64,000 bases of DNA from Escherichia coli (lineage in GTDB: Bacteria > Pseudomonadota > Gammaproteobacteria > Enterobacterales > Enterobacteriaceae): NCBI RefSeq assembly GCF_050920415.1, contig NZ_CP169309.1; one strand, given 5' to 3'. This document shows, piece by piece, positions 4,605 to 49,116 of this stretch (positions are counted from its first letter, which is position 1; every line of letters begins with the position of its first letter). The notes under the pieces are model-generated. The model was not told where the DNA came from and ran no database searches. It was given only the letters and a program-made list of their open reading frames with translations. The position numbers and the translations under genes are program-made.

Positions 4605-5891
4605 TTACTGATGATTCATCATCAATTTACGCAACGCAGCAAAATCGGCGGGCAGATTATGCGAAAGCAAGGGTAAATCAGCACGTTCTGCCAGCTCTTT
4701 TGGCAGATCCAATGTTTCACCGAGAATCGCCTCCACGCTCTCTTTAAATTTCGCCGGATGCGCGGTGCCGAGGAACAGGCCATATTCGCCTGGATGCAAC
4801 TGGTCGCGCAGCGCACGATAAGCTACGGCAGCGTGCGGCTCCGAGGTATAGCCCAGCGCTTTTAACTCACGCATTGTCTGTTGCGTGGTTTCATCATCCA
4901 CGGCTGCATAGCCCAGCTCTTTCAGTTGCCAGATTTTGCGGCGGAATAACTCCTCCACACGCGGCCAGTTGTTCGGCTGACTCACGTCCATCGCATTGGA
5001 TAATGTCGCCTGAGTCGCTTTAGGGGACCACTGCCCGTCGTGCAAGAAACGCGGCACGGTATCGTTCACGTTAGTGGCAGCGATAAAACGCTTCACCGGC
5101 AGGCCAAGAGATTTCGCCAGCAGGCCCGCAGTCAAATCGCCGAAGTTACCGCTCGGCACCGAGACAACCAGCTGGTTGCGCGCTTCCTGCGGCAGCTGCG
5201 CAACAGCTTCAAAGTAGTAGCAAATCTGCGCCAGTAAACGACTGATGTTAATGGAGTTAGCAGAGTTCAGCCCCAAAGCCACTTTCAGTTCTTCATCATC
5301 AAACGCCTGCTTTACCAGCGCCTGACAGGCATCAAAATCGCCGTCAATGGCAATAGTTTCAATATTGCCACCCAACGTACAGAACAGTTTTTCTTGCAGT
5401 GGACTGATTTTGCCTCGTGGATAGAGGATAACCACTTTCACATTCGGTAAACCGTAGAAAGCATGAGCCACTGCCGCTCCAGTATCACCGGAGGTCGCGG
5501 TCAGAATGGTCACTGGCTTATCGCCCGCAATATGGGTCAGCATTTGTGCCATAAAGCGACCGCCGAAATCTTTAAATGCCAGCGTTGGCCCGTGAAACAA
5601 CTCCAGACAACCGACATCGCTTTCAACATTGGCGACCGGAGCCGGGAAGGCAAACGCCGCGCATACGCGCTCTTCCAGTATTTCCTGCGGGATTTCATCA
5701 CCAATAAACGCCGAGAGGATCTTCGCACTGCGGGTGACAAAATCCAGCTTCAGCATCTCATCAATTTCAGTCAGGCTGAATTCCGGTAGGTCGTGCGGAA
5801 AAAACAGCCCCTGATTTTTGCCCAACCCCTGAGTTACGGCTTGCGCAAAGCTGACCTGTTCGTTGTGATCTTTCAGATTGTAGAGTTTCAT
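4605..5891 (-). CDS. thrC: threonine synthase
   Basis: 428-aa ORF matching K-12 ThrC. Confidence 0.97.
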   Translation of the reverse strand: MKLYNLKDHNEQVSFAQAVTQGLGKNQGLFFPHDLPEFSLTEIDEMLKLDFVTRSAKILSAFIGDEIPQEILEERVCAAFAFPAPVANVESDVGCLELFHGPTLAFKDFGGRFMAQMLTHIAGDKPVTILTATSGDTGAAVAHAFYGLPNVKVVILYPRGKISPLQEKLFCTLGGNIETIAIDGDFDACQALVKQAFDDEELKVALGLNSANSINISRLLAQICYYFEAVAQLPQEARNQLVVSVPSGNFGDLTAGLLAKSLGLPVKRFIAATNVNDTVPRFLHDGQWSPKATQATLSNAMDVSQPNNWPRVEELFRRKIWQLKELGYAAVDDETTQQTMRELKALGYTSEPHAAVAYRALRDQLHPGEYGLFLGTAHPAKFKESVEAILGETLDLPKELAERADLPLLSHNLPADFAALRKLMMNHQ

Positions 5892-6824
5892 TTAGTTTTC
5901 CAGTACTCGTGCGCCCGCCGTATCCAGCCGGCAAATATGAACAAAACCTTCCTGATTTTGCAGGTAGTTCTTACCCAACCAGTCGGCAACGCGCTGGGCG
6001 GTATCCGGCTTGTCACACAGAGCGAACAAAGTCGGGCCGGAGCCGGAGATACCGCTCGCTACCGCGCCGATTTCCGCGACCGCCTGCCGCGCCTGCCGGA
6101 AGCCTGGCAGTAACCGTTCACGGTAGGGTTCAGCGATAACATCTTTCATCAGCTTCGCGGCAAGCTCAGGCTGACGGGAATAGCAGGCGTGAATGAAGCC
6201 TGCCAGATGTCGCCCGTGCGCAATGCAATCCTGGCGACGATACTGTGCCGGTAAAATAGCCCGGGCTTCTGCCGTCGAGACTTTAATCCCCGGATATGCC
6301 AGCACCCACAGCCACTCATCAAACCCCGGCACTTGCTGGCTGATGATGTCGTTTTCTTCGATCATCAACTGCATACCACCAAGAAAACACGGTGCCACGT
6401 TGTCGTAATGAATGCTGCCGGAGATACGCCCTTCCAGCTCGCCCATCAAAGCCAGCAAACGGGTGTCATTAAGCGGCTTGCCGCAATGTTCATTCATCGC
6501 CATCAGCGCCGCCACCACCGAACAAGCGCTGGAGCCTAAACCCGAACCGATCGGCATATTCTTTTCCAGCGTCATTGCCACTGGAATTTGCTTGCCCAGC
6601 TCCTGGCAAAAACGCTCCCAGCACTGATAAACGATATTTTCCCGTGGTTCTGACGGCAGCTTATCGGCAAAACGTCCGAGATTGTTGAGACTGAATGTCT
6701 CTGCCGCCTCAACCGTTACTACATCTCCGAGCAATGCACCATCAACAGGTGTCACCGCCGCCCCGAGCACATCAAACCCGACGCTCATATTGGCACTGGA
6801 AGCCGGGGCATAAACTTTAACCAT
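5892..6824 (-). CDS. thrB: homoserine kinase
   Basis: 310-aa ORF matching K-12 ThrB; directly follows thrA. Confidence 0.97.
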
Positions 6825-6825
6825 G

Positions 6826-9288
6826 TCAGACTCCTAACTTCCATGAGAGGGTACGTAGCAGATCGGCAAAGACACCAGCAGCTGTAACGTCATTGCCCGC
6901 GCCATATCCGCGCAGAACCAACGGCAGCGGCTGATAATAGTGGCTATAGAAGGCCAGGGCGTTTTCGCCATTTTTCACTTTGAACAGCGGATCATTGCCA
7001 TCCACTTCGGCAATCTTCACGCGGCAGATGCCATCTTCATCAATATTGCCAACATAGCGCAAAACTTTGCCCTCATCACGAGCCTTCGCCACGCGTGCGG
7101 CAAAGAGATCGTCGAGCTGTGAAAGATTCGCCATAAAAGCTGCAACATCACCCTCTGCGTTAAACTCTGCGGGCAGCACAGGTTCAATTTCAATATCCGC
7201 CAGTTCCAGTTCACGTCCCGTTTCACGGGCGAGGATCAATAGCTTACGCGCCACATCCATACCAGAAAGATCATCTCGCGGGTCCGGTTCGGTATAACCC
7301 ATTTCCCGCGCCAGCGTGGTCGCCTCGGAGAAACTCATGCCTTCGTCTAACTTGCCGAAGATATAAGAAAGCGAACCGGAAAGAATGCCGGAGAACTTCA
7401 TTAATTCATCACCTGCGTTGAGCAGATTTTGCAGGTTCTCAATAACCGGTAATCCAGCCCCAACGTTAGTGTCATAGAGGAATTTACGCCGCGATTTTTC
7501 CGCCGCATAACGCAACTGATGGTAGTAATCCATCGACGAGGTGTTGGCCTTTTTGTTTGGCGTAACCACGTGGAAACCTTCGCGCAGGAAGTCAGCATAC
7601 TGATCCGCCACCGCCTGGCTGGAGGTACAGTCGACAATCACCGGATTCAGCAAATGATATTCTTTCACCAGGCGAATTAAGCGCCCGAGGTTAAACGGCT
7701 CTTTGGCTTGCGCCAGTTCTTCCTGCCAGTTCTCCAGATTAAGGCCATGCACATTGGTGAGCAGAGCCTTTGAGTTGGCAACGCCGCAGACACGTAAGTC
7801 GATATGTTTATTCTTCAGCCAGCTTTGCTGACGCTTCAGTTGCTCCAGCAGCGCACCGCCAACGCCACCGACACCAATTACAAACACTTCGATAACCTGA
7901 TCGGTATTGAACAGCATCTGATGAGTAACGCGCACACCAGTGGTCGCATCATCGTTATTTACCACGACAGAGATTGAGCGTTCAGAAGATCCCTGAGCAA
8001 TGGCGACAATGTTGATATTGGCGCGGGCCAGCGCGGCAAAGAATTTCGCCGAGATCCCACGCAAGGTGCGCATACCATCACCTACCACCGAGATAATGGC
8101 TAGCCGTTCCGTCACCGCCAGCGGCTCCAGCAAGCCTTCCTTCAGTTCAAGATAGAACTCTTCCTGCATCGCCCGTTCAGCTCGCACACAGTCGCTTTGT
8201 GGAACGCAGAAACTGATACTGTATTCAGAAGACGATTGCGTAATCAGCACCACTGAAATGCGAGCGCGTGACATCGCTGCAAAGACGCGCGCCGCCATGC
8301 CGACCATTCCTTTCATCCCCGGGCCGGAAACACTGAACATTGCCATATTATTCAGATTGGAAATGCCCTTGACCGGTAATTCGTCTTCATCACGGCTGGC
8401 GCCAATGAGCGTACCTGGTGCTTGAGGATTTCCGGTGTTTTTAATCAGGCAAGGGATCTGGAACTGAGCGATGGGGGTAATGGTGCGGGGGTGAAGAACT
8501 TTAGCGCCGAAGTAGGAAAGCTCCATCGCTTCCTGATAGGACATCGACTTCAACAACCTCGCATCGGGCACCTGACGCGGGTCGCAGGTATAGACCCCGT
8601 CAACGTCCGTCCAGATCTCGCAACAATCGGCGCGTAAACAGGCAGCCAGTACCGCGGCGGAGTAGTCGGAACCGTTACGTCCAAGCACCACCAGTTCGCC
8701 TTTTTCATTACCGGCGGTGAAACCTGCCATCAGCACCATGTGGTCAGCCGGAATGCGGCTTGCCGCAATACGGCGGGTGGACTCAGCAATATCGACGGTA
8801 GATTCGAGGTAATGACCGACTGCCAGCAGTTTTTCGACCGGATCGATTACGGTAACGTTGTGACCACGCGCTTCTAACACGCCGGCCATAATGGCGATCG
8901 ACATTTTCTCGCCACGGCAAATCAGTGCCGCGTTGATGCTATCCGGGCACTGCCCTAACAAACTAATACCATGCAGGACATGTTTAATTTGGGCAAATTC
9001 CTGGTCGACGAAAGTTTTCAGCTGCGCCAGCGGGAATCCCGGCTGAGCGGCGGCGAGTCCCGTCAGAAGTTCGGCAAAAATACGTTCGGCATCGCTGATA
9101 TTGGGTAAAGCATCCTGGCCGCTAATGGTTTTTTCAATCATCGCCACCAGGTGGTTGGTGATTTTGGCGGGGGCAGAGAGGACGGTGGCCACCTGCCCCT
9201 GCCTGGCATTGCTTTCCAGAATATCGGCAACCCGCAGAAAACGTTCTGCATTTGCCACTGATGTACCGCCGAACTTCAACACTCGCAT
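6826..9288 (-). CDS. thrA: bifunctional aspartokinase I / homoserine dehydrogenase I
   Basis: ORF 6826-9330 contains the 820-aa ThrA starting [20 protein letters not shown] at the ATG at 9288; the upstream 14 codons of the ORF-track call run through the attenuator and are not coding. Confidence 0.97.
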
Positions 9289-35899: not shown

Positions 35900-35915
35900 C
35901 ATGGCGGATGCAGCC

Positions 35916-36114
35916 TACGGTTCGGCACAGACCTGTAGGCATGATAAGACGCGTCAGCGTCGCATCAGGCATTGTGCGTCGACTGCCGGATGCGGTGTGA
36001 CGCCTTATCCGGCTTACGGTTCGGCACAGACTTGTAGGCATGATAAGACGCGTCAGCGTCGCATCAGGCATTGTGCGTCGACTGCCGGATGCGGTGTGAA
36101 CGCCTTATCCGGCT
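35916..36114. repeat. BIME: tandem duplication of an approximately 99-bp unit, each unit containing two REP-type palindromes
   Basis: Unit tacggttcggcacagacctgtaggcatgataagacgcgtcagcgtcgcatcaggcattgtgcgtcgactgccggatgcggtgtgacgccttatccggct at 35916-36014, repeated at 36015-36114 with 2 differences. Confidence 0.8.
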
Positions 36115-36127
36115 TACGAAGGGCAGA

Positions 36128-39389: not shown

Positions 39390-40976
39390 TTAATGCTCGC
39401 GAGTCTGGTGGAACTGAACGTCCGGATAACGTTCCTGTGCCAGGCGCAGGTTGACCATGCTGGTAGCGATGTAAGCGAGGTTATCGCCGCCATCAAGCGC
39501 CAGTTGGCTTTCGTTCTTACGCTTGAACTCTTCGAATTTCTTCGCGTCCGCACATTCTACCCAGCGTGCAGTGGCAACGTTGACTGACTCATACACTGCT
39601 TCAACGTTGTATTCGCTCTTCAGGCGCGCTACCACCACATCAAACTGCAGCACACCAACCGCACCAACGATCAGGTCGTTGTTGGAGATCGGACGGAACA
39701 CCTGCACCGCGCCCTCTTCGGAAAGCTGTACCAGCCCTTTGAGCAGCTGTTTTTGCTTCAGCGGATCTTTCAGGCGGATACGACGGAACAGTTCCGGCGC
39801 AAAGTTCGGGATACCGGTGAACTTCATCATCTCACCCTGGGTAAAGGTGTCGCCGATCTGAATAGTGCCGTGGTTGTGCAGACCAAGGATGTCGCCCGGA
39901 TACGCTTCTTCAACATGCGAACGGTCGCCCGCCATAAAGGTCAGCGCGTCGGAGATCACCACATCTTTCGCGGTGCGCACCTGGCGCAGCTTCATACCTT
40001 TTTCATATTTACCAGATACCACACGCATAAACGCCACGCGGTCGCGGTGTTTCGGGTCCATGTTGGCCTGAATTTTAAATACGAAGCCGGTAAATTTATC
40101 TTCGCTCGCCTCTACGATACGGGTATCAGTCTGACGCGGCATCGGCGCAGGTGCCCACTCTACCAGGCCATCCAGCATATGATCGACGCCGAAGTTACCC
40201 AGCGCAGTACCAAAGAACACTGGAGTAATTTCGCCCGCAAGGAACAATTCTTTGTCGAACTCGTTAGACGCGCCTTTCACCAGTTCCAGTTCGTCACGCA
40301 GCTGCTGTGCCAGATCTTCACCAACCGCAGCATCGAGATCCGGGTTATTCAGCCCTTTAACAATACGGACTTCCTGAATGGTGTGACCTTTACCGCTCTG
40401 ATAGAGATAGGTTTCGTCTTTATAAAGGTGGTAAACGCCTTTAAACAGCTTGCCGCAGCCAATCGGCCAGGTGATCGGCGCACAGCCGATTTTCAGCTCG
40501 TTCTCAACTTCATCGAGCAGCTCCATCGGATCGCGGATATCACGGTCAAGTTTGTTCATAAAGGTGAGGATCGGCGTATCGCGCAGACGGGTAACTTCCA
40601 TCAGCTTACGGGTACGATCTTCAACACCTTTTGCGGCGTCGATAACCATCAGGCAGCAGTCCACCGCCGTCAGGGTACGATAGGTATCTTCCGAGAAGTC
40701 TTCGTGCCCGGGGGTGTCGAGCAGGTTAACCAGGCAGTCGTGATACGGAAACTGCATCACAGACGTGGTAATGGAGATCCCACGCTGCTTTTCCATCTCC
40801 ATCCAGTCCGACTTAGCGTGCTGGTTGGAACCACGGCCTTTTACTGTACCGGCAGTCTGAATGGCCTGTCCGAACAGCAGCACCTTCTCGGTGATGGTCG
40901 TTTTACCGGCGTCCGGGTGAGAAATAATTGCAAAGGTTCTTCTTTTCGCTACCTCTGCGGCCAAAAGGCTTGTCAT
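39390..40976 (-). CDS. prfC: peptide chain release factor 3, with a non-K-12 N-terminus
   Basis: 528 aa from the ATG at 40976 ([27 protein letters not shown]...); from residue 9 onward it matches K-12 RF3 as I recall it (K-12 begins MTLSPYLQEVAKRR). Confidence 0.93.
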
Positions 40977-41162
40977 AATTGTTGTCTCTTTGATTATGTA
41001 CAATCATATGTACAAAGAAAAATTCATGCCGCTGATTGTACATTTTGGAGGTATCAGAGCATAGCAGAACATGATCAGTAGGTGTATTTGTAGCCAAAGA
41101 ACATTTGTACATGCAGCAATCTTTACTCTATTGACACTGTTTATTCATACAGTAAAAAATAG

Positions 41163-41195: not shown

Positions 41196-41444
41196 ATGCG
41201 TATTGAGATCTGCATAGCCAAAGAGAAAATGACTAAAATGCCAAGCGGTGCTGTTGATGCGTTAAAGGAAGAATTAACTCGGCGCATCAGTAAGCGTTAT
41301 GACGATGTAGAAGTAATCGTAAAAGCCACCAGCAATGACGGGCTTTCTGTTACACGCACCGCAGATAAGGATTCTGCAAAAACATTTGTTCAGGAGACTC
41401 TGAAAGATACTTGGGAGTCTGCTGACGAGTGGTTTGTTCACTAA
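41196..41444 (+). CDS. DinI-family protein (prophage-encoded)
   Basis: 82-aa [14 protein letters not shown]...[15 protein letters not shown] resembling E. coli DinI in size and C-terminal motif; GAGGGA ribosome-binding site. Confidence 0.85.
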
Positions 41445-41694
41445 TAGACACGTAAAATCGGTAACGGCTGGAAATAATTCAATACTCGCACTATCGGAAG
41501 TTCACCAGCCAGCCGCAGCACGTTCTTGCATACGACGTGCCTGCGGTTTCAACTCCCGCCAGCTCCACCACTTTTGATAGGACTGCAACCGGACAGCGGC
41601 AATAAAAACAGCCACTTACGGACACTGACCAGACAGTAAGCGGACTTAAAAAAGACAAAAATATACACGCAAAATGCACGTGCATTTCAAAAAA

Positions 41695-41728
41695 GCCTCT
41701 GATTGTGAAGTCAGAGGCTTTTCTATTT
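41695..41728 (+). terminator. intrinsic terminator on the plus strand
   Basis: gcctctga-ttgtgaag-tcagaggc hairpin followed by ttttctattt. Confidence 0.6.
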
Positions 41729-41768
41729 GTAACTAAGAGTAACAATTCAACATAACGCAACCTACCAA

Positions 41769-42341
41769 TTACGTCACGTCAAACGCTCTGATTGAACGCA
41801 AATCATCCAGATTATTCAGTTGTTCCTTCATCTCGCGCTGGCGTTCGTGGATTTTAAAGCCCTCCGCCACCATGGCCACCATCATGGCATCGTTCAGCGC
41901 AATAAGTTTCTCCCTGGTCAGTATGACGTTGTTATTATCCGCATCAGTCCAGAAAAAACCATCCGGAAGCAGCCCGGCCTGCGCTGTTGCAACCACGGGC
42001 GCAAGGCGTGACTGCGAGGTTTTTCCGCCATCAAAACGACGGCCATCAAACGTGAAAATAAACTCAACGTTTTCCTGACTGTCGCGCCATGCCTCAATTT
42101 CCCGCCTTTTGGCATCCTTTGCCGCTGCAATAAGTTCCGGCGTGACGGTGAACGGGGCGATTTCGCCCCATTTCCCGCTTTGCAGCTCCTGCCAGACATG
42201 CTGGCCTGTCGGGGCCATATCATCCTGTATGGCGGTATACAGGACGAACTCCGTTTCACCTTCAAATAACACCTCGCAGTCAACCGCACCATTTTCAAGA
42301 TAATGCGCGTTTCTGATGCCTTTCACCGCTCTGATTTTCAT
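41769..42341 (-). CDS. putative tail fibre assembly / chaperone protein
   Basis: 190-aa ORF immediately downstream of the side tail fibre gene, the position occupied by tfa in lambda; assignment is by position and size, sequence is not lambda Tfa-like. Confidence 0.55.
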   Translation of the reverse strand: MKIRAVKGIRNAHYLENGAVDCEVLFEGETEFVLYTAIQDDMAPTGQHVWQELQSGKWGEIAPFTVTPELIAAAKDAKRREIEAWRDSQENVEFIFTFDGRRFDGGKTSQSRLAPVVATAQAGLLPDGFFWTDADNNNVILTREKLIALNDAMMVAMVAEGFKIHERQREMKEQLNNLDDLRSIRAFDVT

Positions 42342-42355
42342 GTCTTATTTCCTTA

Positions 42356-44446
42356 TTACTCAATGCGTACAAAAAGACCGATATAGCCACGCGTTGTATC
42401 GTGACTAATGCGGGTCCCCGAAAGCGCCGTGTAACGACCGGGGAAGTTGTATTCACCAGCACCGCCAATCACAACCTGCGGTGAGGATGCGTATGTCCCT
42501 GTATCGCTAACCCGTGCACTCATAGCCAGAGGGCCAAGACGGGAACCCGGCACAATATCACCGAGCCCCAGAGACGCATCTGCACCAAAACTCTCCCCCT
42601 GATATGCCGCCATAATCGGCACACCAACGGCCGGGTATTTATAATATGAGCCTGAGCCCGCCATCCTGGACAGCAGGTACGCCAGTGAATCTCCGTCGTA
42701 TACAACTACCCGCGATGACATGTTCCAGCTGTTATCGCTGTCGTTGTACCGGTACTGCATATAGTGAATACAGTGTTCACCCTGATAATACTGGTTGTAG
42801 CACATCAGGGTTTTAAATTTGCGGACTGTGTCGGATTCACTGTTGGCGTACGGTGACCACATCACATCAATAATGCCGTTAAATTGCGTGGTACCGGTAA
42901 GCAGTTGCGAGGAGTCTGTAATACTGACCGCATACCGCCCCGGCGTGACTTTCTTCAACCACTCAACGAAATCAGACAGCCCCTCAAACGCCAGAGCGTC
43001 AGTGCTGGTGAATGCCTGTCCAAACCCATACATCCCGGACAGGGCCAGCCTGCCCGGTGTGCGGTCACGGATATCACTCTGGGGTTCCATCGTCGCAGCC
43101 GCGTTCAGCTCAAGCTCCGTGCGCATGGCTTCAGCCGTGTCATGCGCCAGTAATGCGCGGCCCTTCTCTGACAGCAGAGACAGTGAGGCATTCCCGTCTG
43201 TATTGAAGTACAGAAGATTATCTGCCCGTTGCGTCAGTGCGCTGATTGCCGTTAAGACGTCATTAAGCGGTTGTTTGCCTGCCAGCGCGTTTGTGATTGT
43301 CGTCGCAAAGTTCGGGTCATTGCCCAGCGCCGCAGCCAGTTCGTTCAGGGTGTCCAGAACTTCCGGTGACGAATCAACCAGCGCAGCAAGCAGTTTGCGC
43401 ACAAACGCCGCGTTCGCTGCTTCCAGACCGGCGGCATCATCCTGTGGGGTTGGGGTGGTTGGGGTGCCGGTGAAGGCCGGGCTGTCCAGTGGCGCTTTTG
43501 TTTTCGTCTCCTCCATGACGGTTTTGACAGCCTTTGGCGTGGCAGCCAGTTCCTCGCTGTCGTTATCCGTGTCACTACAGAGTTGCACCAGACCTTTTTC
43601 TGTCGTGGAGGCATTTGTTGCATTCAGGTCATCAACTATCTGCTGCGTCTCATCCCTGTACTGTTTCGCTTCCTGCGCATTGTCTGCACCTGCATCCTGG
43701 CTGGCTTTAGCCTGTCGGGCGTATTCGGCGGCACTGTTTTTGTGCCCCAGCGCCGCATTTGCCGACAGTTCTGAACTGGTCGCTGCTGATGATGCGGCAT
43801 TATGATAAAGGCGGGCGCGTTCGGCGGCATCGACTGATTCGTCCCGCGCTGTGCCTGATGACTGTGCGCTGTTTTCTGCCTCACCCGCAAAACGTTCCGC
43901 ATCATCACGGGCCGTTGCGGTTGTCGTCACATCCTGTGCCGTCTGCTGTGCGTTTCCGGCTGCAGCTTCGGCGCTCTGCTGTGTCTGATTTTTTAGCTCT
44001 TCTGCCTCATCCTTACTAACCGCCGCAGATGTTGCTGCATTGATTGCATCATCAGCAGCTGTTTCTGCTCTCTCCCTGTCACTGACCACCTGCTCAGACA
44101 AGCGAACAACGGTATTTACCATTTCCTCAAAACGCTTCATTACCTCAGGGCGTAAATCACCCTCCTTTGGTGCATCCAGAAAAGCATTCAGCGTATCCGG
44201 CTCATCTGTCGGTGCAACATAAATTTCCCCCGCCTTTACAGGAGGATGCCCTGAGCGGGACAAAAATACATCATAAAATCCCGGCTCAGCATTAATAGTA
44301 TACCCGCCATCACTTCCCGTAAGACAGGTTGCCACAATATTAACCACAACTGTCGGACTGGTTCTTCTGGCTCGCAATTCAATCGCACAGTTTACGACAG
44401 GCTCACCTGCTCCGTCCTTCAGGACACCTGAAATCTTTACTGCCAT
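42356..44446 (-). CDS. stf: side tail fibre protein (Stf-like)
   Basis: ATG at 44446 gives MAVKISGVLKDGAGEPV..., the conserved N-terminus of lambdoid side tail fibres; long Ala/Ser/Thr/Gln-rich shaft; about 696 aa. Confidence 0.85.
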   Translation of the reverse strand: MAVKISGVLKDGAGEPVVNCAIELRARRTSPTVVVNIVATCLTGSDGGYTINAEPGFYDVFLSRSGHPPVKAGEIYVAPTDEPDTLNAFLDAPKEGDLRPEVMKRFEEMVNTVVRLSEQVVSDRERAETAADDAINAATSAAVSKDEAEELKNQTQQSAEAAAGNAQQTAQDVTTTATARDDAERFAGEAENSAQSSGTARDESVDAAERARLYHNAASSAATSSELSANAALGHKNSAAEYARQAKASQDAGADNAQEAKQYRDETQQIVDDLNATNASTTEKGLVQLCSDTDNDSEELAATPKAVKTVMEETKTKAPLDSPAFTGTPTTPTPQDDAAGLEAANAAFVRKLLAALVDSSPEVLDTLNELAAALGNDPNFATTITNALAGKQPLNDVLTAISALTQRADNLLYFNTDGNASLSLLSEKGRALLAHDTAEAMRTELELNAAATMEPQSDIRDRTPGRLALSGMYGFGQAFTSTDALAFEGLSDFVEWLKKVTPGRYAVSITDSSQLLTGTTQFNGIIDVMWSPYANSESDTVRKFKTLMCYNQYYQGEHCIHYMQYRYNDSDNSWNMSSRVVVYDGDSLAYLLSRMAGSGSYYKYPAVGVPIMAAYQGESFGADASLGLGDIVPGSRLGPLAMSARVSDTGTYASSPQVVIGGAGEYNFPGRYTALSGTRISHDTTRGYIGLFVRIE

Positions 44447-44511
44447 ATTCACCCCACAAAAAAGCCCGCCTGAACCCGGCGGGCTGTCATAACACTGTGT
44501 TACCTGGCTAA

Positions 44512-45111
44512 TCAGAACTTATAACCGACACCCACGATGAAACCGTCAGTGCGCCAGTCGCCACTGCCGGAGCCTTCATAAGCAATATCAATAGCCACGG
44601 ATTCGGTCGGGTTAAACTGCACGCCAGCTCCCCACGCCAGAGACGTGTTGCTGTGGCGACCGTCATCACTTCCGGTCAGCACATCGTGCGTTTTCCCCTT
44701 ATTGTCAGTTACGCGGAGATAATCCCCGGAGAAAGTCGACACACGGCTGTAAGCCACACCCGCCATCGCATACGCGCTGAACCATTCATTCACGCGCACA
44801 GACGGCCCCGCCATTACGCTGAACCAGCGGTTACGAACGGAATCTTCATGCCAGCGGGTATCGCTGTAACGGGTCAGCTGGCGATTCTTGTCTCCTGCAT
44901 AGCTGAATGACGTCACCATACCCAGTGTGTCCGTAAACTCATAACGGTATTTCACGTTAATCCCGTTCAGATCATCGCTGCCGGGAACGTTCGTCGAGAC
45001 ATGAAGATACCCCGCGCTCAGCGTGGACTGATGTTCAGACGCCCATGCAGGCGCACCGGATAAGGCCAGACAAATGGCTGCGGACAAAATGGCGGCATAA
45101 AGTTTACGCAT
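44512..45111 (-). CDS. lom: Lom/Ail-family outer membrane beta-barrel protein
   Basis: 199-aa ORF with signal peptide and C-terminal ...GYKF, between J and stf as in lambda. Confidence 0.88.
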   Translation of the reverse strand: MRKLYAAILSAAICLALSGAPAWASEHQSTLSAGYLHVSTNVPGSDDLNGINVKYRYEFTDTLGMVTSFSYAGDKNRQLTRYSDTRWHEDSVRNRWFSVMAGPSVRVNEWFSAYAMAGVAYSRVSTFSGDYLRVTDNKGKTHDVLTGSDDGRHSNTSLAWGAGVQFNPTESVAIDIAYEGSGSGDWRTDGFIVGVGYKF

Positions 45112-45177
45112 AATTACCTCTCGCTTTTCTGCAATAAAAAAGGCGTCATTTCTGACGCCCGTTATGGGTTATAAAAT

Positions 45178-48100
45178 TCAGCTGATACTGATACCTGCTG
45201 TGGATTTCTTCATCACCACAACCAGCAGATCGCTGATACTGGTTGTTGGTGTCCAGTTATTCGCTCCTGATGAAGATACGGTGAATGTCAGTGTCAGCGT
45301 CCCCTGTCCGGCAGGCATATCTATAACTGAGGAAAATACGCCCTGAGCATCCGTCGTGGACTGATTAAAAATCTCCTGACCATTGCGGGTCACTCTTAAC
45401 CGGCAGGTTGAATACCAGTATGACTGTTGGTTATTACTGTTGAAATTCTCATGCTTACCACCACGGAACAACACTGGCGGTATCATGACCTGCCGGTCAA
45501 ATTTCTGATCATCACTGATTCTTACCGTGATGGTGCCACTGGCATAACTGTTCGTGCGGGGGAAAGACTTGCTGACCGTTTTGACAATATCGCCTTCAAT
45601 CTGGTTGGCTGACAGTTTCCCCTTAATCTGACAGTTCTCATTTATCGTGACGTTGTTGAGCGTCCCGGAGTTCGCATTCACGTTACCGCTGATATCGGCA
45701 TTTTTAGCGGTCAGCTTTCCGTCCGGTGTCAGGGAAAATGCAGGAGGATTACCGCCGCTGGTAATGGTGGGAGCCGTCAGATATTTCAGGAACACTTCAT
45801 TCATGAATATCTGATCACCCTGACCAACAAACATCGGTTTTGTGTTGCCATTTGCAGGATTAATCATCGCAATCCTGTCTGCCGCCAGCAGCACCTGACT
45901 CTGCATGCCGTCGGGGGTGTTCTCAATACCGGCACCGATACCCGCAATATAAAGGCGACCATCCTGCATCTGCTGCAGTTTCACGGCCCACATACTGTTC
46001 AGGTTATTACTGGTGTCCGTCTGAACCTTTTGTATCTGCTGGATGGTGGCCTCCTGATCTCCCAGCTTCTGGTCCGTTGTCGTCATGATTTCACTGCTTT
46101 TTTGATCCACATACTGGCGAACCTGCGCTATCTGGCGTGCATTCTCCTCATTACTCTGACTGACCGTCTGCGTGAGTTCGCTGCTGACGTTATCCACTCT
46201 CTGGCTCACCTGTGATATACCCAGTGACAGCTCATCATTTTTTTTCGCAACCAGCTGTGTGAGGCTGTTTTCTGTCTCCCCGATTTTTTGGGTCACTTCA
46301 GCAATATCACTCTCTATCTGCTGATTGATCTCATCCTCCAGTTGCTCAACTTCACTGCGCAATGCCGAGGCATTAATACGATCGTTCAGCTCCTGCCCCA
46401 GCAGGGTGCTGTTTATTTTCCCTTCAAAAAAATTGAGATACACCTCAGCATCATTAACCGGCTGGCCAACAGCTTCCACAAACGCTGATTTACCGACGAT
46501 GTTCACACTGCGGATATAAAAGTAATAATCATGGCCCGGCCTGATATTAATACTGGCAGCTGTCCAGTACATCGCCGTACCAAGATAGCGGGCTGTGGTT
46601 TCAACCTGCCGGATATCCGTAATCTGATTTTCCGAGAACCAGAACTCAAACTGCACCGTCGGGTCATACACCGCAAGACGCGGGACTGCCGTTATCTGAA
46701 AATACCCCGGTATCAGTTCAATCTGTGACGGCGCTGCCGGGGCGTTAATCCGGAATGAGGTGGTGGCGGGTTCCCCCTGCTGGCCATAACTGTTTATCGC
46801 CCGCACCGTCAGGGTGTATTCCCCCAGTGGCAGACCACTGAAACGGTGCGCCGTGTCTGCAGTGATGGCGTTGGTCACCAGACGGCTGTCTTCACCGCTT
46901 CCACGGTTCAGGCGCAGACTGAAGCGCACACCCTTCACCACCCGCGGCGTGTCCCATTTCGCCTGCGCCAGATACTGGCCATCATCCGCGCTCACCTCCA
47001 CCGTGAGGTGCTGCACTGCCGGAGGAGTGACGCTGTTCAGGGAGCCGGACAGCGGCTCAAAGGTGGCCCCGTTATCCACAATGGCTTCTTTTTCCGGTAC
47101 GTGCTGCACCGCCGTGATGGCAAAGGTGCCGTCCGTGTTTTCCCGGATGGCCACACAGCGGAACAGGCGACGTCGAAGGCCGGGAATTTTCAGCCCCCAT
47201 ACCCCGTATGTCGCCACGCCATCAGGCAGGGCGCTGACCTGTATCCGGTCAGGAGCAGGCTGTGCCGTGATGTCCACACTCACCGGCTTACCGCTGCCAT
47301 TAATCAGGTTCACCGTGGCGGTACCGGTCTCCGGAAGCGTCACCTCCCGGTCCAGCGTCAGGGTGAGACTGGCGGCATCGATGTTCAGAATGCGCCCGCC
47401 GGTCAGGGTCCCGGCGTAGTCGTTATCACAGACTTCAATGATGTCACCGGGCGTGTGGCGCAGCCCCTGTGATCCGAGCGTGAAATCCACCGTCTGCGTT
47501 TCCAGCAGTTCGGTCTTTATCACCCACAGTCCGGCACGGTGAGCCTGACCGCGACTGGTACAGCCGAACGCATCCATCTTCAGCAGATTACGTCCGTAGC
47601 GCAGTATGGCTTCCGGGTCTTCCACCAGTTCAGTGGAGGTCTGCCAACCGTTCTGCGGGTCGGTGTAATTCACCTCCACCGCCGTGTGCCGGTCCTTCAG
47701 GGCGCTGAAGCTGTAGCGGAAGCCCACACCGTTATCATCCACCACCACATCGCTGTTGGTGTAGGGCCACACCACATCCGACGGGCGGTCCTGCACGAAC
47801 GTCAGCGTCTGCCCGTTCCATACCGGCATACAGCGCATCGCCGAGCAGAAATCACTGAGCACATCCCACGCCTTACGCTGTTGTGACAGGTACGCATTAA
47901 ACGTCATCCGCGGTTCGGTCCCCCCGAAGCCATCCGGCACCGGCTGGTCGCAGTACTGCGCAATGGCATACAGAGCCCATTTGTCCACGTCTGCGGCCCC
48001 CAGACGTTTCCCCATCCCGTAGCGCGGGTGGGTCAGCATGTCCCACAGGCACCAGGCCGGGTTGTTGCTCCAGGCCGGTTTCATACACCCGTCCCAGATA

Positions 48101-48873
48101 CCGCTGTAAGTACGTTTTTCCGGGTCATAGTTTGACGGCACCTGAATGATGCGACCGCGGATATGGTAGTTCACAGTTATCTGCTGACCGCCAAACTGCT
48201 CCGCATCCACCTGCAGGCCCACAATGGCCGTGTTCGGGTAGCACTGTTCCACATCGATGATTTCGGTGTATGACGACCACAGCGTTCTGTTCTGCAGCTG
48301 GTCCGTGGTGCTGTCAGCCGTCTCCCTGACCATCCGGATGTTAAAGGGGCGCTCAGGCAGATTATTCAGAATCACCGACGTCAGGTACTGCGAGGTGGTC
48401 TTACCGTTAATGGTGACATCCTTTTCCGTCACCCAGCTACCGTTACGCTGCAGCTGAATCAGCAGACGAACAGAAGCCGGATTACGGTCGCCCCTGGAGG
48501 TGGTCTCCACCAGTGACTGTACCCCGAAGGTGACCCGCAGGCGGTCAATGTTCGCGGACGTGATGGTACGCGTCACCGGCTTTGCCTTCGTCACTTCCAC
48601 ACCCAGCGCAGTTTCAGCCCCGGAGGACTCAAAACCTTCCGGCGGGGTCTGCTCCTGCTCCCCGGCGCGCCAGACGGCGGTCACACCGTGTATCACGGGA
48701 TTGCCGTCCGTGTCCGTCAGCGGGGTTTTATTCACCAGGATACTCTGCAGTCCCTTCACCGGGCCTTCTATCGGTCCCTCTCCAATCGCATCAATCACGC
48801 TCATCATCTGCGTGGACTTAAGATTGTCCTTTGCCTCAACTGGCGTGTGCGCCTTGCCGCCACCTTTTCCCAT
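45178..48873 (-). CDS. J: tail tip host-specificity protein J
   Basis: ORF 45178-48909; ATG at 48873 gives [37 protein letters not shown], lambda gpJ-like N-terminus; 1231 aa. Confidence 0.93.
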
Positions 48874-49116
48874 TGCCTCACCCTTTACTGTGATAACTGT
48901 TACGCACAAAAGAACAGGCCCCCCGGGGATGCCTGTATCATAATGACTGAATAAAAATTCTGAGTTTATTCACATTTCCGGAAACTGACGGTTGCAGGAA
49001 TAACTCCACATTTTTACAGTTCTTCAGCCTGATAAAGGCAATTGGTCAAAACTTAACTAATCAAGGTGACTATTCATTTCTCCCGTAATATTCGTGAGTA
49101 TTACGGGAGATTTTTT

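Follow-up and report, generated by a model that had tools for sequence, protein, structure and literature searches.

The 64,000-nt stretch of DNA analysed here (the window) contains a lambda-like prophage that adjoins prfC in an Escherichia coli chromosome. The window ends inside nu1, and the host-recognition genes of the prophage, namely J, a lom-like gene, stf and a gene encoding a DUF4376 protein, all lie on the minus strand. These four genes are full-length open frames whose lengths equal those of annotated homologues, and the whole arrangement is already annotated in RefSeq. With lambda proteins as tblastn queries and the window as target, every head and tail gene from nu1 to J gave a full-length match, and the head and packaging proteins were close to their lambda counterparts (A 99.4%, W 98.5%, B 99.4%, C 97.0%, D 97.3%, E 96.8%, and FI/FII 91% identity). 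By contrast, the tail proteins Z to I showed only 61-86% identity, J 72.7% over aa 1-854 and 54% over aa 840-1128, and Lom 45%. Stf resembled lambda orf401 (~40%) in its N-terminal part only, the match to lambda orf314 was confined to aa 1-54, and lambda Tfa had no match in the window. A first-pass annotation had described the head and packaging proteins as near-identical to lambda, which is borne out (91-99%) for the head genes alone and not for the tail genes. It had also called the module a mosaic with a longer J, a non-lambda distal Stf and an assembly protein unlike Tfa, and on each of these points it was right: none of J, the Stf tip and the assembly gene is of the lambda type.

The stf gene (42356..44446, minus strand) most likely starts at the ATG at 44446, which begins the protein with MAVKISG as in lambda and yields 696 aa, the length at which RefSeq annotates Stf homologues; an alternative upstream GTG at 44452 would give 698 aa. 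An exact-sequence look-up returned no entry matching the 696-aa protein. Stf is assigned to PHROG 2636 and matches two Pfam families, phage_tail_N (PF08400; aa 3-136, E=1.2e-40) and Phage_fiber_2, while its N-terminal 92 aa match the Stf collar of Ur-lambda (PDB 9e7m, E=4e-21). The collar contacts reported in Ur-lambda involve gpM K2, W6 and R80 and gpV E63 (PMC12617516), and all four residues are conserved in the proteins of the window. Stf would dock on the tail through this lambda-type N-terminal collar domain, at the gpV-gpM junction. Similarity to lambda Stf is limited to the proximal half, and the fibre is predicted to end in a beta-rich knob unrelated to the lambda tip. This knob, the presumed receptor-binding tip, spans about 220 aa (~aa 478-696; 42359..43015, minus strand). 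It belongs to no Pfam family and lacks a solved relative, and Pfam finds no gp37 or Collar domain in Stf; a structural model of the knob was moderately confident (pLDDT 73 overall) and had no informative structural neighbour. The same fibre tip occurs on fibre scaffolds of two kinds, one of siphoviruses (PF08400) and one of myoviruses (PF12571).

The DUF4376 gene (41769..42341, minus strand) begins ~14-15 nt past the stf stop, and a hairpin with a 14-bp stem (41691..41722, no strand assigned) closes the stf-DUF4376 unit. The first-pass annotation had placed this gene within 42356-48873, whereas it lies just outside that interval. Its 190-aa product, present in the database by exact-sequence look-up, has a single Pfam match, to PF14301 (aa 73-178, 69.9 bits against a gathering cutoff of 25), and belongs to PHROG 1141. 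Comparisons with lambda Tfa revealed no relationship by BLASTP (E=0.15) or by hhalign with a 52-sequence profile (8% probability), and a search of the PDB with the DUF4376 profile recovered no Tfa chain. The Tfa proteins of lambda and of phage Chlobot both match PF02413, whereas the 190-aa protein does not. Many relatives share only aa 65-189 with it, as would be expected if the N-terminal domain varies and the C-terminal one is conserved, and at all related loci the DUF4376 homologue is encoded immediately after a related fibre tip.

DUF4376 proteins are demonstrated tail-fibre chaperones in Alteromonas phage V22 and Campylobacter CJIE1 (PMC7289586, PMC10579305, PMC7882524). By analogy with this work and that on Alteromonas A5, the protein encoded here is probably the cognate intermolecular chaperone of the Stf knob: it would trimerise via long helices and, with beta-strands at its N-terminus pairing with the knob, would drive or cap fibre trimerisation. 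Alternatively, it might remain on the tip, either capping it or serving as the adhesin proper, and co-determine the receptor, like gp38 of T2-type phages. PHROG 1141 is indeed labelled 'tail fiber protein', transient 'caps' have been proposed and heterohexameric fibre-chaperone complexes predicted (PMC10579305), and the gene is exchanged along with the knob. Nevertheless, this role seems to us unlikely, as DUF4376 proteins are not known as virion components and the AF2 model (pLDDT 97) shows a helical, prefoldin-like fold that is not adhesin-like.

Exchange of the knob with its presumed chaperone is apparent from comparison with the prophages of other E. coli genomes. The window is 99-100% identical to its nearest relative, the prophage of MFDS1022581 at the same prfC site, except at 43000-41800, where identity falls to 60-93%; in that interval it matches E. 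coli 06-00048 at 100% identity. The only segment swapped between the two same-site prophages is thus the Stf knob and DUF4376 cassette, and the pair probably travels as a single unit by recombination between prophages. Near the fibre tip, a search for an invertible segment, a shufflon or diversity-generating repeats found short repeats at chance level only and no tandem DNA repeats. The first-pass annotation had regarded the host-range genes as the part of the prophage most likely to be strain-specific. The fibre tip is indeed the most variable part, being the sole difference from the closest same-site prophage, but to call the arrangement strain-specific overstates the case: among 5,426 complete E. 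coli genomes ~14-19 have it, and several assemblies carry modules identical or 99.9% identical to that of the window.

The comparison with 06-00048 also revealed a 28-nt remnant of the 3' end of ssrA (tmRNA; 41543..41570, plus strand). Window positions 42400-41543 are 99.5% identical to 06-00048, in which the same stretch continues into an intact ssrA, and the remnant marks a former prophage end. A search for tRNA or tmRNA genes at the prophage end found none anywhere in the window, and an Rfam search gave only a sub-threshold CssrB match. An 89-aa ORF at 41491-41760 was rejected as a gene: it has no family match, runs across both the terminator and the ssrA remnant, and is unannotated in RefSeq relatives.

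Such a trace of past rearrangement could be taken to indicate that the module is a decaying remnant, currently without host-recognition function. Defective lambdoid prophages are numerous in E. coli genomes, and in two related genomes (L006 and L012) stf is interrupted by an IS66 element or split, the second having a split J as well. We think this improbable for the prophage described here, given the full-length frames of J, lom, stf and the DUF4376 gene and the full-length matches from nu1 to J.

J itself (45178..48873, minus strand) runs from an ATG at 48873 to a stop at 45178 (3696 nt) and encodes 1231 aa, compared with 1132 aa in lambda. It scores 2315 bits against the NCBIfam model lambda_TipJ (NF049904), above the curated cutoff of 1950, and contains six Pfam domains in the lambda order: FNIII-A_GpJ, Phage-tail_3, Ig_J, Ig_J_second, Phage_Tail_Tip and Ig_GpJ_C. 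Like its lambda counterpart, J would make up the hub of the tail tip together with the trimeric central fibre. The two proteins align along their full length except for an insertion in the shaft: a MAFFT alignment with the J proteins of lambda and Chlobot opens a gap of ~101 aa against lambda at aa 834-937. Self-alignment of J peaked at an offset of 29 residues with a score of 61 (shuffled sequences, 34 +/- 5.6, maximum 55), and aa 852-967 comprise four 29-residue repeats, compared with a single one in lambda. The shaft also includes a 135-residue stretch without proline. In lambda the alpha-helical shaft occupies residues 809-861 (PMC11101478), and the extra 99 aa of J are accounted for by expansion of this element (45973..46374, minus strand), from one repeat to four. 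If fully helical, the longer shaft would lengthen the central fibre by roughly 13-15 nm.

Following J, a terminator-like hairpin (45141..45160, minus strand; 8-bp stem, then a T-run) separates it from the lom-like gene (44512..45111, minus strand), which is itself followed by a second such hairpin (44463..44485, minus strand; 8-bp stem with 7 GC pairs, then a T-run). The lom-like product, an outer-membrane beta-barrel of 199 aa, matches the Ail/Lom profile (PF06316) over its full length (1-199 of 199, E=1.5e-119). The gene is a moron, a passenger rather than a virion component.

The receptor-binding end of J consists of the beta-prism bottom of the fibre and an Ig-like receptor-binding domain (aa 1065-1231; 45181..45681, minus strand). 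These last 167 aa are identical at all 167 positions to 'A8 gpJ 713' in PDB 9wca/9wcb, and are also identical to the J of phage Chlobot. A8 is a chimeric lambda gpJ whose delivery of DNA succeeds in lamB-deleted cells and depends on OmpC; it was tested on 23 OmpC variants and is active on most of them (10.1101/2022.09.30.509847; PMC11338833). We equated the 'A8 gpJ' of the PDB with the A8 of Brodel et al. (Nature 2024) by the shared name and the chimeric layout, with lambda sequence up to the junction; literature searches found no publication describing 9wca and nothing on phage Chlobot. Because this end is identical to that of the OmpC-using A8, the receptor of the central fibre is most likely OmpC and not LamB, and the 'A8'-type Ig-like domain of J would bind this porin as it does in the lambda-A8 chimera. 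The first-pass annotation had predicted a receptor different from LamB and OmpC; the shift away from LamB stands, but not that away from OmpC. The target of the Stf knob should then differ, because J already uses OmpC, and is most likely another surface molecule, for example LPS or O-antigen.

Taken together, we consider it probable that the module is a mosaic, lambda-like host-recognition module with an OmpC-type J end, an Stf that joins a lambda collar to a foreign knob, a DUF4376 chaperone, a passenger lom and exchangeable cassettes. We conclude that the module represents ordinary lambdoid mosaicism, its host-recognition end being assembled from such cassettes. A more elaborate version, in which knob and retained DUF4376 protein form a two-protein adhesin for a receptor new to coliphages while the long J shaft reaches OmpC through a thick O-antigen or capsule, is in our view quite improbable. 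It is very unlikely that J keeps LamB or uses another porin such as OmpF: its end does belong to the lambda Ig_GpJ_C family (124 bits in Pfam), the last 131 aa are ~41% identical to lambda, and point mutations can move lambda J to OmpF (discussed in PMC11101478), but the receptor-binding domain differs from lambda by three indels, and A8 gpJ, with the same 167-aa end, was selected on a lamB-deleted recipient and needs OmpC.

The locus places in a natural genomic setting the OmpC-binding 'A8' gpJ domain, which is already in use for retargeting lambda-based DNA delivery particles and is found here in nature with a much longer helical shaft. The OmpC data for A8 come from the short shaft of lambda; that of the window J is much longer. 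Once its receptor is identified, the Stf knob with its DUF4376 chaperone would be a compact, naturally exchanged cassette of ~1.3 kb suitable for transfer to the Stf scaffolds of lambda. These practical uses are of modest value, and the locus is a further clear case of cassette exchange in lambdoid host range rather than a new principle.

Among known systems, lambda gpJ belongs to the same family as the window J and has the same domain order, but the body of the window J is only 73% identical and its shaft ~100 aa longer; A8 gpJ has in common with it the last 167 aa. Ur-lambda Stf shares with the window Stf the N-terminal collar, a coiled-coil shaft and a hinge motif that is conserved (SPEVLDTLNELAAALGNDPNFATT), but ends in a T4 gp37-like, OmpC-binding tip to which the ~220-aa knob is unrelated, with no match past aa 54 of orf314. 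Lambda Tfa (Caudo_TAP, PF02413) is similar to the DUF4376 protein in size (194 aa versus 190 aa) and in its position directly after stf, but belongs to another Pfam family than PF14301 and has no sequence or profile similarity to it. A DUF4376 protein of ~190-240 aa encoded after a fibre gene recurs in V22 (gp26/gp27), A5 (gp8/gp9) and CJIE1 (H-fibre and downstream gene), where the chaperone fold combines a helical body with beta-strands that pair with the fibre knob; the DUF4376 protein is required for an active fibre in V22 and CJIE1 but dispensable in A5. These systems differ from the window in host and fibre scaffold, and the similarity is limited to the DUF4376 domain. Closer to home, related tip and DUF4376 genes co-occur, as in the window, in phiP27, Rac-SA53, SerU-LTIIb, pPE4 and Av-05, and those of phiP27, Rac-SA53, SerU-LTIIb, P-EibA (orf-191) and Av-05 are distant alleles lying side by side in the same order, with 30-38% identity in the tips and 36-54% in the DUF4376 proteins.

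A tblastn search of the window with all lambda structural proteins showed that identity to lambda falls along a clear gradient across the structural genes. Identity is 97-99% for Nu1, A, W, B, C, D, and E, 91% for FI and FII, and 61-86% for the tail proteins Z to I; the near-identity to lambda that the first-pass annotation proposed for the head proteins thus holds, and is limited to the head genes. J reaches 73% in aa 1-854 and 54% in aa 840-1128, Lom 45%, and the N-terminal part of Stf (side tail fibre) ~40%; lambda orf314 matches through its first 54 residues alone, and lambda Tfa has no match anywhere in the window. The accompanying claim that J, the Stf tip, and the adjoining 190-aa gene are unlike lambda is therefore borne out.

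All relevant genes of this region lie on the minus strand. J runs from an ATG at 48873, preceded by a good ribosome-binding site, to a stop at 45178 (1231 aa) and is followed by a terminator-like hairpin (45141-45160), a lom-like gene (44512-45111, 199 aa), and a second hairpin (44463-44485). Stf occupies 42356-44446 and has 696 residues counted from the lambda-like start MAVKISG, or 698 from the GTG two codons upstream chosen by the ORF finder. The 190-aa gene (41769-42341) follows across a gap of 14 nt, just outside the 42356-48873 interval first assigned to the module, and a hairpin with a 14-bp stem (41691-41722) closes the unit. Downstream are a dinI-like gene on the plus strand (41196-41444) and chromosomal prfC (39390-41003). 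RefSeq already annotates the four products as gpJ, Ail/Lom, prophage tail fiber N-terminal domain-containing protein, and DUF4376 domain-containing protein. An 89-aa minus-strand ORF with a TTG start (41491-41760) is probably no gene: it has no family match, is unannotated in relatives, and overlaps the terminator hairpin and an ssrA remnant; Rfam gave only a sub-threshold CssrB match there (25.7 bits; gathering score 76). The I-J gap (48874-49116) measures 243 nt versus 60 nt in lambda and contains a perfect palindrome with a 14-bp stem (hairpin 49079-49110) between an A-run and a T-run; in E. coli 06-00048, an IS21-family ISEc10 element sits inside this gap. In the chromosomal flank, secondary BLAST alignments revealed two adjacent ~104-nt copies with 98% mutual identity in the yjjV-yjjW region (35913-36118).

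By its NCBIfam NF049904 score (2315 bits against a cutoff of 1950), J is a full lambda TipJ family member, and all six Pfam domains come in the lambda order. Alignment with lambda J and the 1160-aa J of phage Chlobot confines its extra length to aa 834-937, between the second Ig/FNIII domain and the Phage_Tail_Tip beta-prism. The corresponding lambda residues 809-861 form an alpha-helical shaft that flips upon LamB binding, releasing the FNIII domains (PMC11101478). The inserted sequence has no proline, and aa 852-967 comprise four 29-residue repeats with the pattern I-x-Q-V-x-Q-x-V-D-x-x-S-S-E-L-T-Q (self-alignment score 61, shuffles 34 +/- 5.6), whereas lambda J retains only the last of the four. 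No tandem repeat was found in J at the DNA level, which argues for an old duplication. As a continuous helix, the ~90-100 extra shaft residues would lengthen the fibre by ~13-15 nm.

The last 131 residues of J are an Ig_GpJ_C domain (124 bits) that is only ~41% identical to lambda, with three indels, and 100% identical to Chlobot J. A PDB sequence search showed that aa 1065-1231 are identical to the 'A8 gpJ 713' chains of 9wca/9wcb (E=3.7e-167), which carry lambda sequence before a junction and non-lambda sequence beyond it. This layout is that of the chimeric variants of Brodel et al., who grafted C-terminal parts of gpJ variants from natural E. coli prophages onto lambda gpJ and screened the fusions on a recipient lacking lamB. 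A8 recognises OmpC of MG1655 and EDL933 and, jointly with variant 1A2, covers 21 of 23 OmpC variants (10.1101/2022.09.30.509847; PMC11338833). We take the PDB entry to be the published A8 on the shared name and architecture. Since the J end is identical to A8 gpJ, OmpC is the best-supported candidate receptor of the central fibre. A receptor other than LamB or OmpC had been proposed; the departure from LamB stands, but the central fibre would have turned to OmpC.

In its first 92 residues, Stf corresponds to the collar domain of Ur-lambda Stf (PDB 9e7m, E=4e-21; Pfam PF08400). Twelve such domains encircle the Ur-lambda tail as a collar where gpV meets gpM, contacting gpV E63 and gpM K2, W6, and R80 (PMC12617516). 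The V and M of the window conserve all four, so Stf should mount on the prophage's own tail. An alanine- and glutamine-rich shaft with one Phage_fiber_2 repeat follows, then the widely shared hinge motif SPEVLDTLNELAAALGNDPNFATT, the sole part of Stf matching lambda orf314 and other PDB fibres. The distal knob (~aa 478-696) is also found joined to myovirus-type (PF12571) fibre N-termini. Many partial knob copies (our protein matches P0011, P0016, P0026, P0036, and others) bear the NCBI name 'shikimate transporter', which looks like a propagated annotation error.

The 190-aa protein belongs to PF14301 (DUF4376; 69.9 bits, cutoff 25) and PHROG 1141, whereas lambda and Chlobot Tfa are Caudo_TAP proteins. 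Direct BLASTP against lambda Tfa gave E=0.15 and hhalign with a profile of 52 relatives a probability of 8%, in agreement with the initial view that it does not resemble Tfa. DUF4376 has been equated with the C-terminal part conserved in Tfa proteins of the Mu/lambda type (PMC7882524), a correspondence not reproduced by this hhalign comparison or by a DUF4376 profile, which matched no Tfa chain in PDB. Experiments on DUF4376 proteins encoded directly 3' of fibre genes showed V22 gp27 to be essential for an active fibre and A5 gp9 to be dispensable; in CJIE1, the gene after the H-fibre is required (PMC7289586, PMC10579305, PMC7882524). An exhaustive HMMER search yielded 373 representative relatives, many matched over aa 65-189 only, which fits a variable fibre-specific N-terminal domain and a conserved C-terminal one. 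Related tips and DUF4376 genes are always paired in sequenced phages (phiP27, Rac-SA53, SerU-LTIIb, pPE4, Av-05, and the P-Eib phages).

Two related prophages were compared with the window. That of MFDS1022581, at prfC, shows 99-100% identity in two stretches, one spanning I, J, lom, and the proximal part of Stf, the other reaching from the ssrA remnant into prfC. Between them, over precisely 43000-41800, where the knob and DUF4376 gene lie, identity falls to 60-93%. That of 06-00048, adjoining ssrA, reaches just 65-87% across the first two-thirds of J, rising to 99.5-100% from the shaft insertion (~46400) to the end at 41543. Knob and helper thus behave as a single exchangeable cassette of ~1.3 kb. 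Between the fibre module and dinI/prfC, 28 nt (41543-41570) reproduce the 3' end of ssrA (tmRNA) except for one mismatch, and MFDS1022581 has them too. In 06-00048 the module continues straight into intact ssrA; the fibre end of the window prophage thus bears an att-like scar left by a relative that had integrated at ssrA. In addition to its prfC prophage, AP025741.1 has a second, identical DUF4376 gene next to ssrA (positions 5707-8573 of locus L011, 3380715-3397287) behind a 759-aa PF08400 Stf. This Stf comes immediately after a set of P2-like baseplate genes with its own PF12571 fibre/Caudo_TAP pair, so that two fibre and helper systems are juxtaposed.

The module had been thought the part of the prophage most likely to be strain-specific, which goes too far: four assemblies (GL872047.1, AP025751.1, AP025741.1, and AEZI02000002.1) share the arrangement at 99.9-100% identity over the 16.6 kb compared, with stf called in pieces in GL872047.1 and both stf and J in AEZI02000002.1; in a fifth, AP025747.1, an IS66 element interrupts stf. 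In a set of 5,426 complete E. coli genomes, at least 80% of the 8-kb module is present in 19, the knob-chaperone allele in 19, and this J 3' end with its long shaft in 14, making the module uncommon without being unique.

Host-range mosaicism, as first read, is broadly correct. Every component falls in a described family, and the J receptor-binding domain is already characterised in function and structure. Compared with lambda, the central fibre has most likely exchanged LamB for OmpC, and the side fibre, served by a DUF4376-type helper in place of Tfa, has moved away from OmpC.
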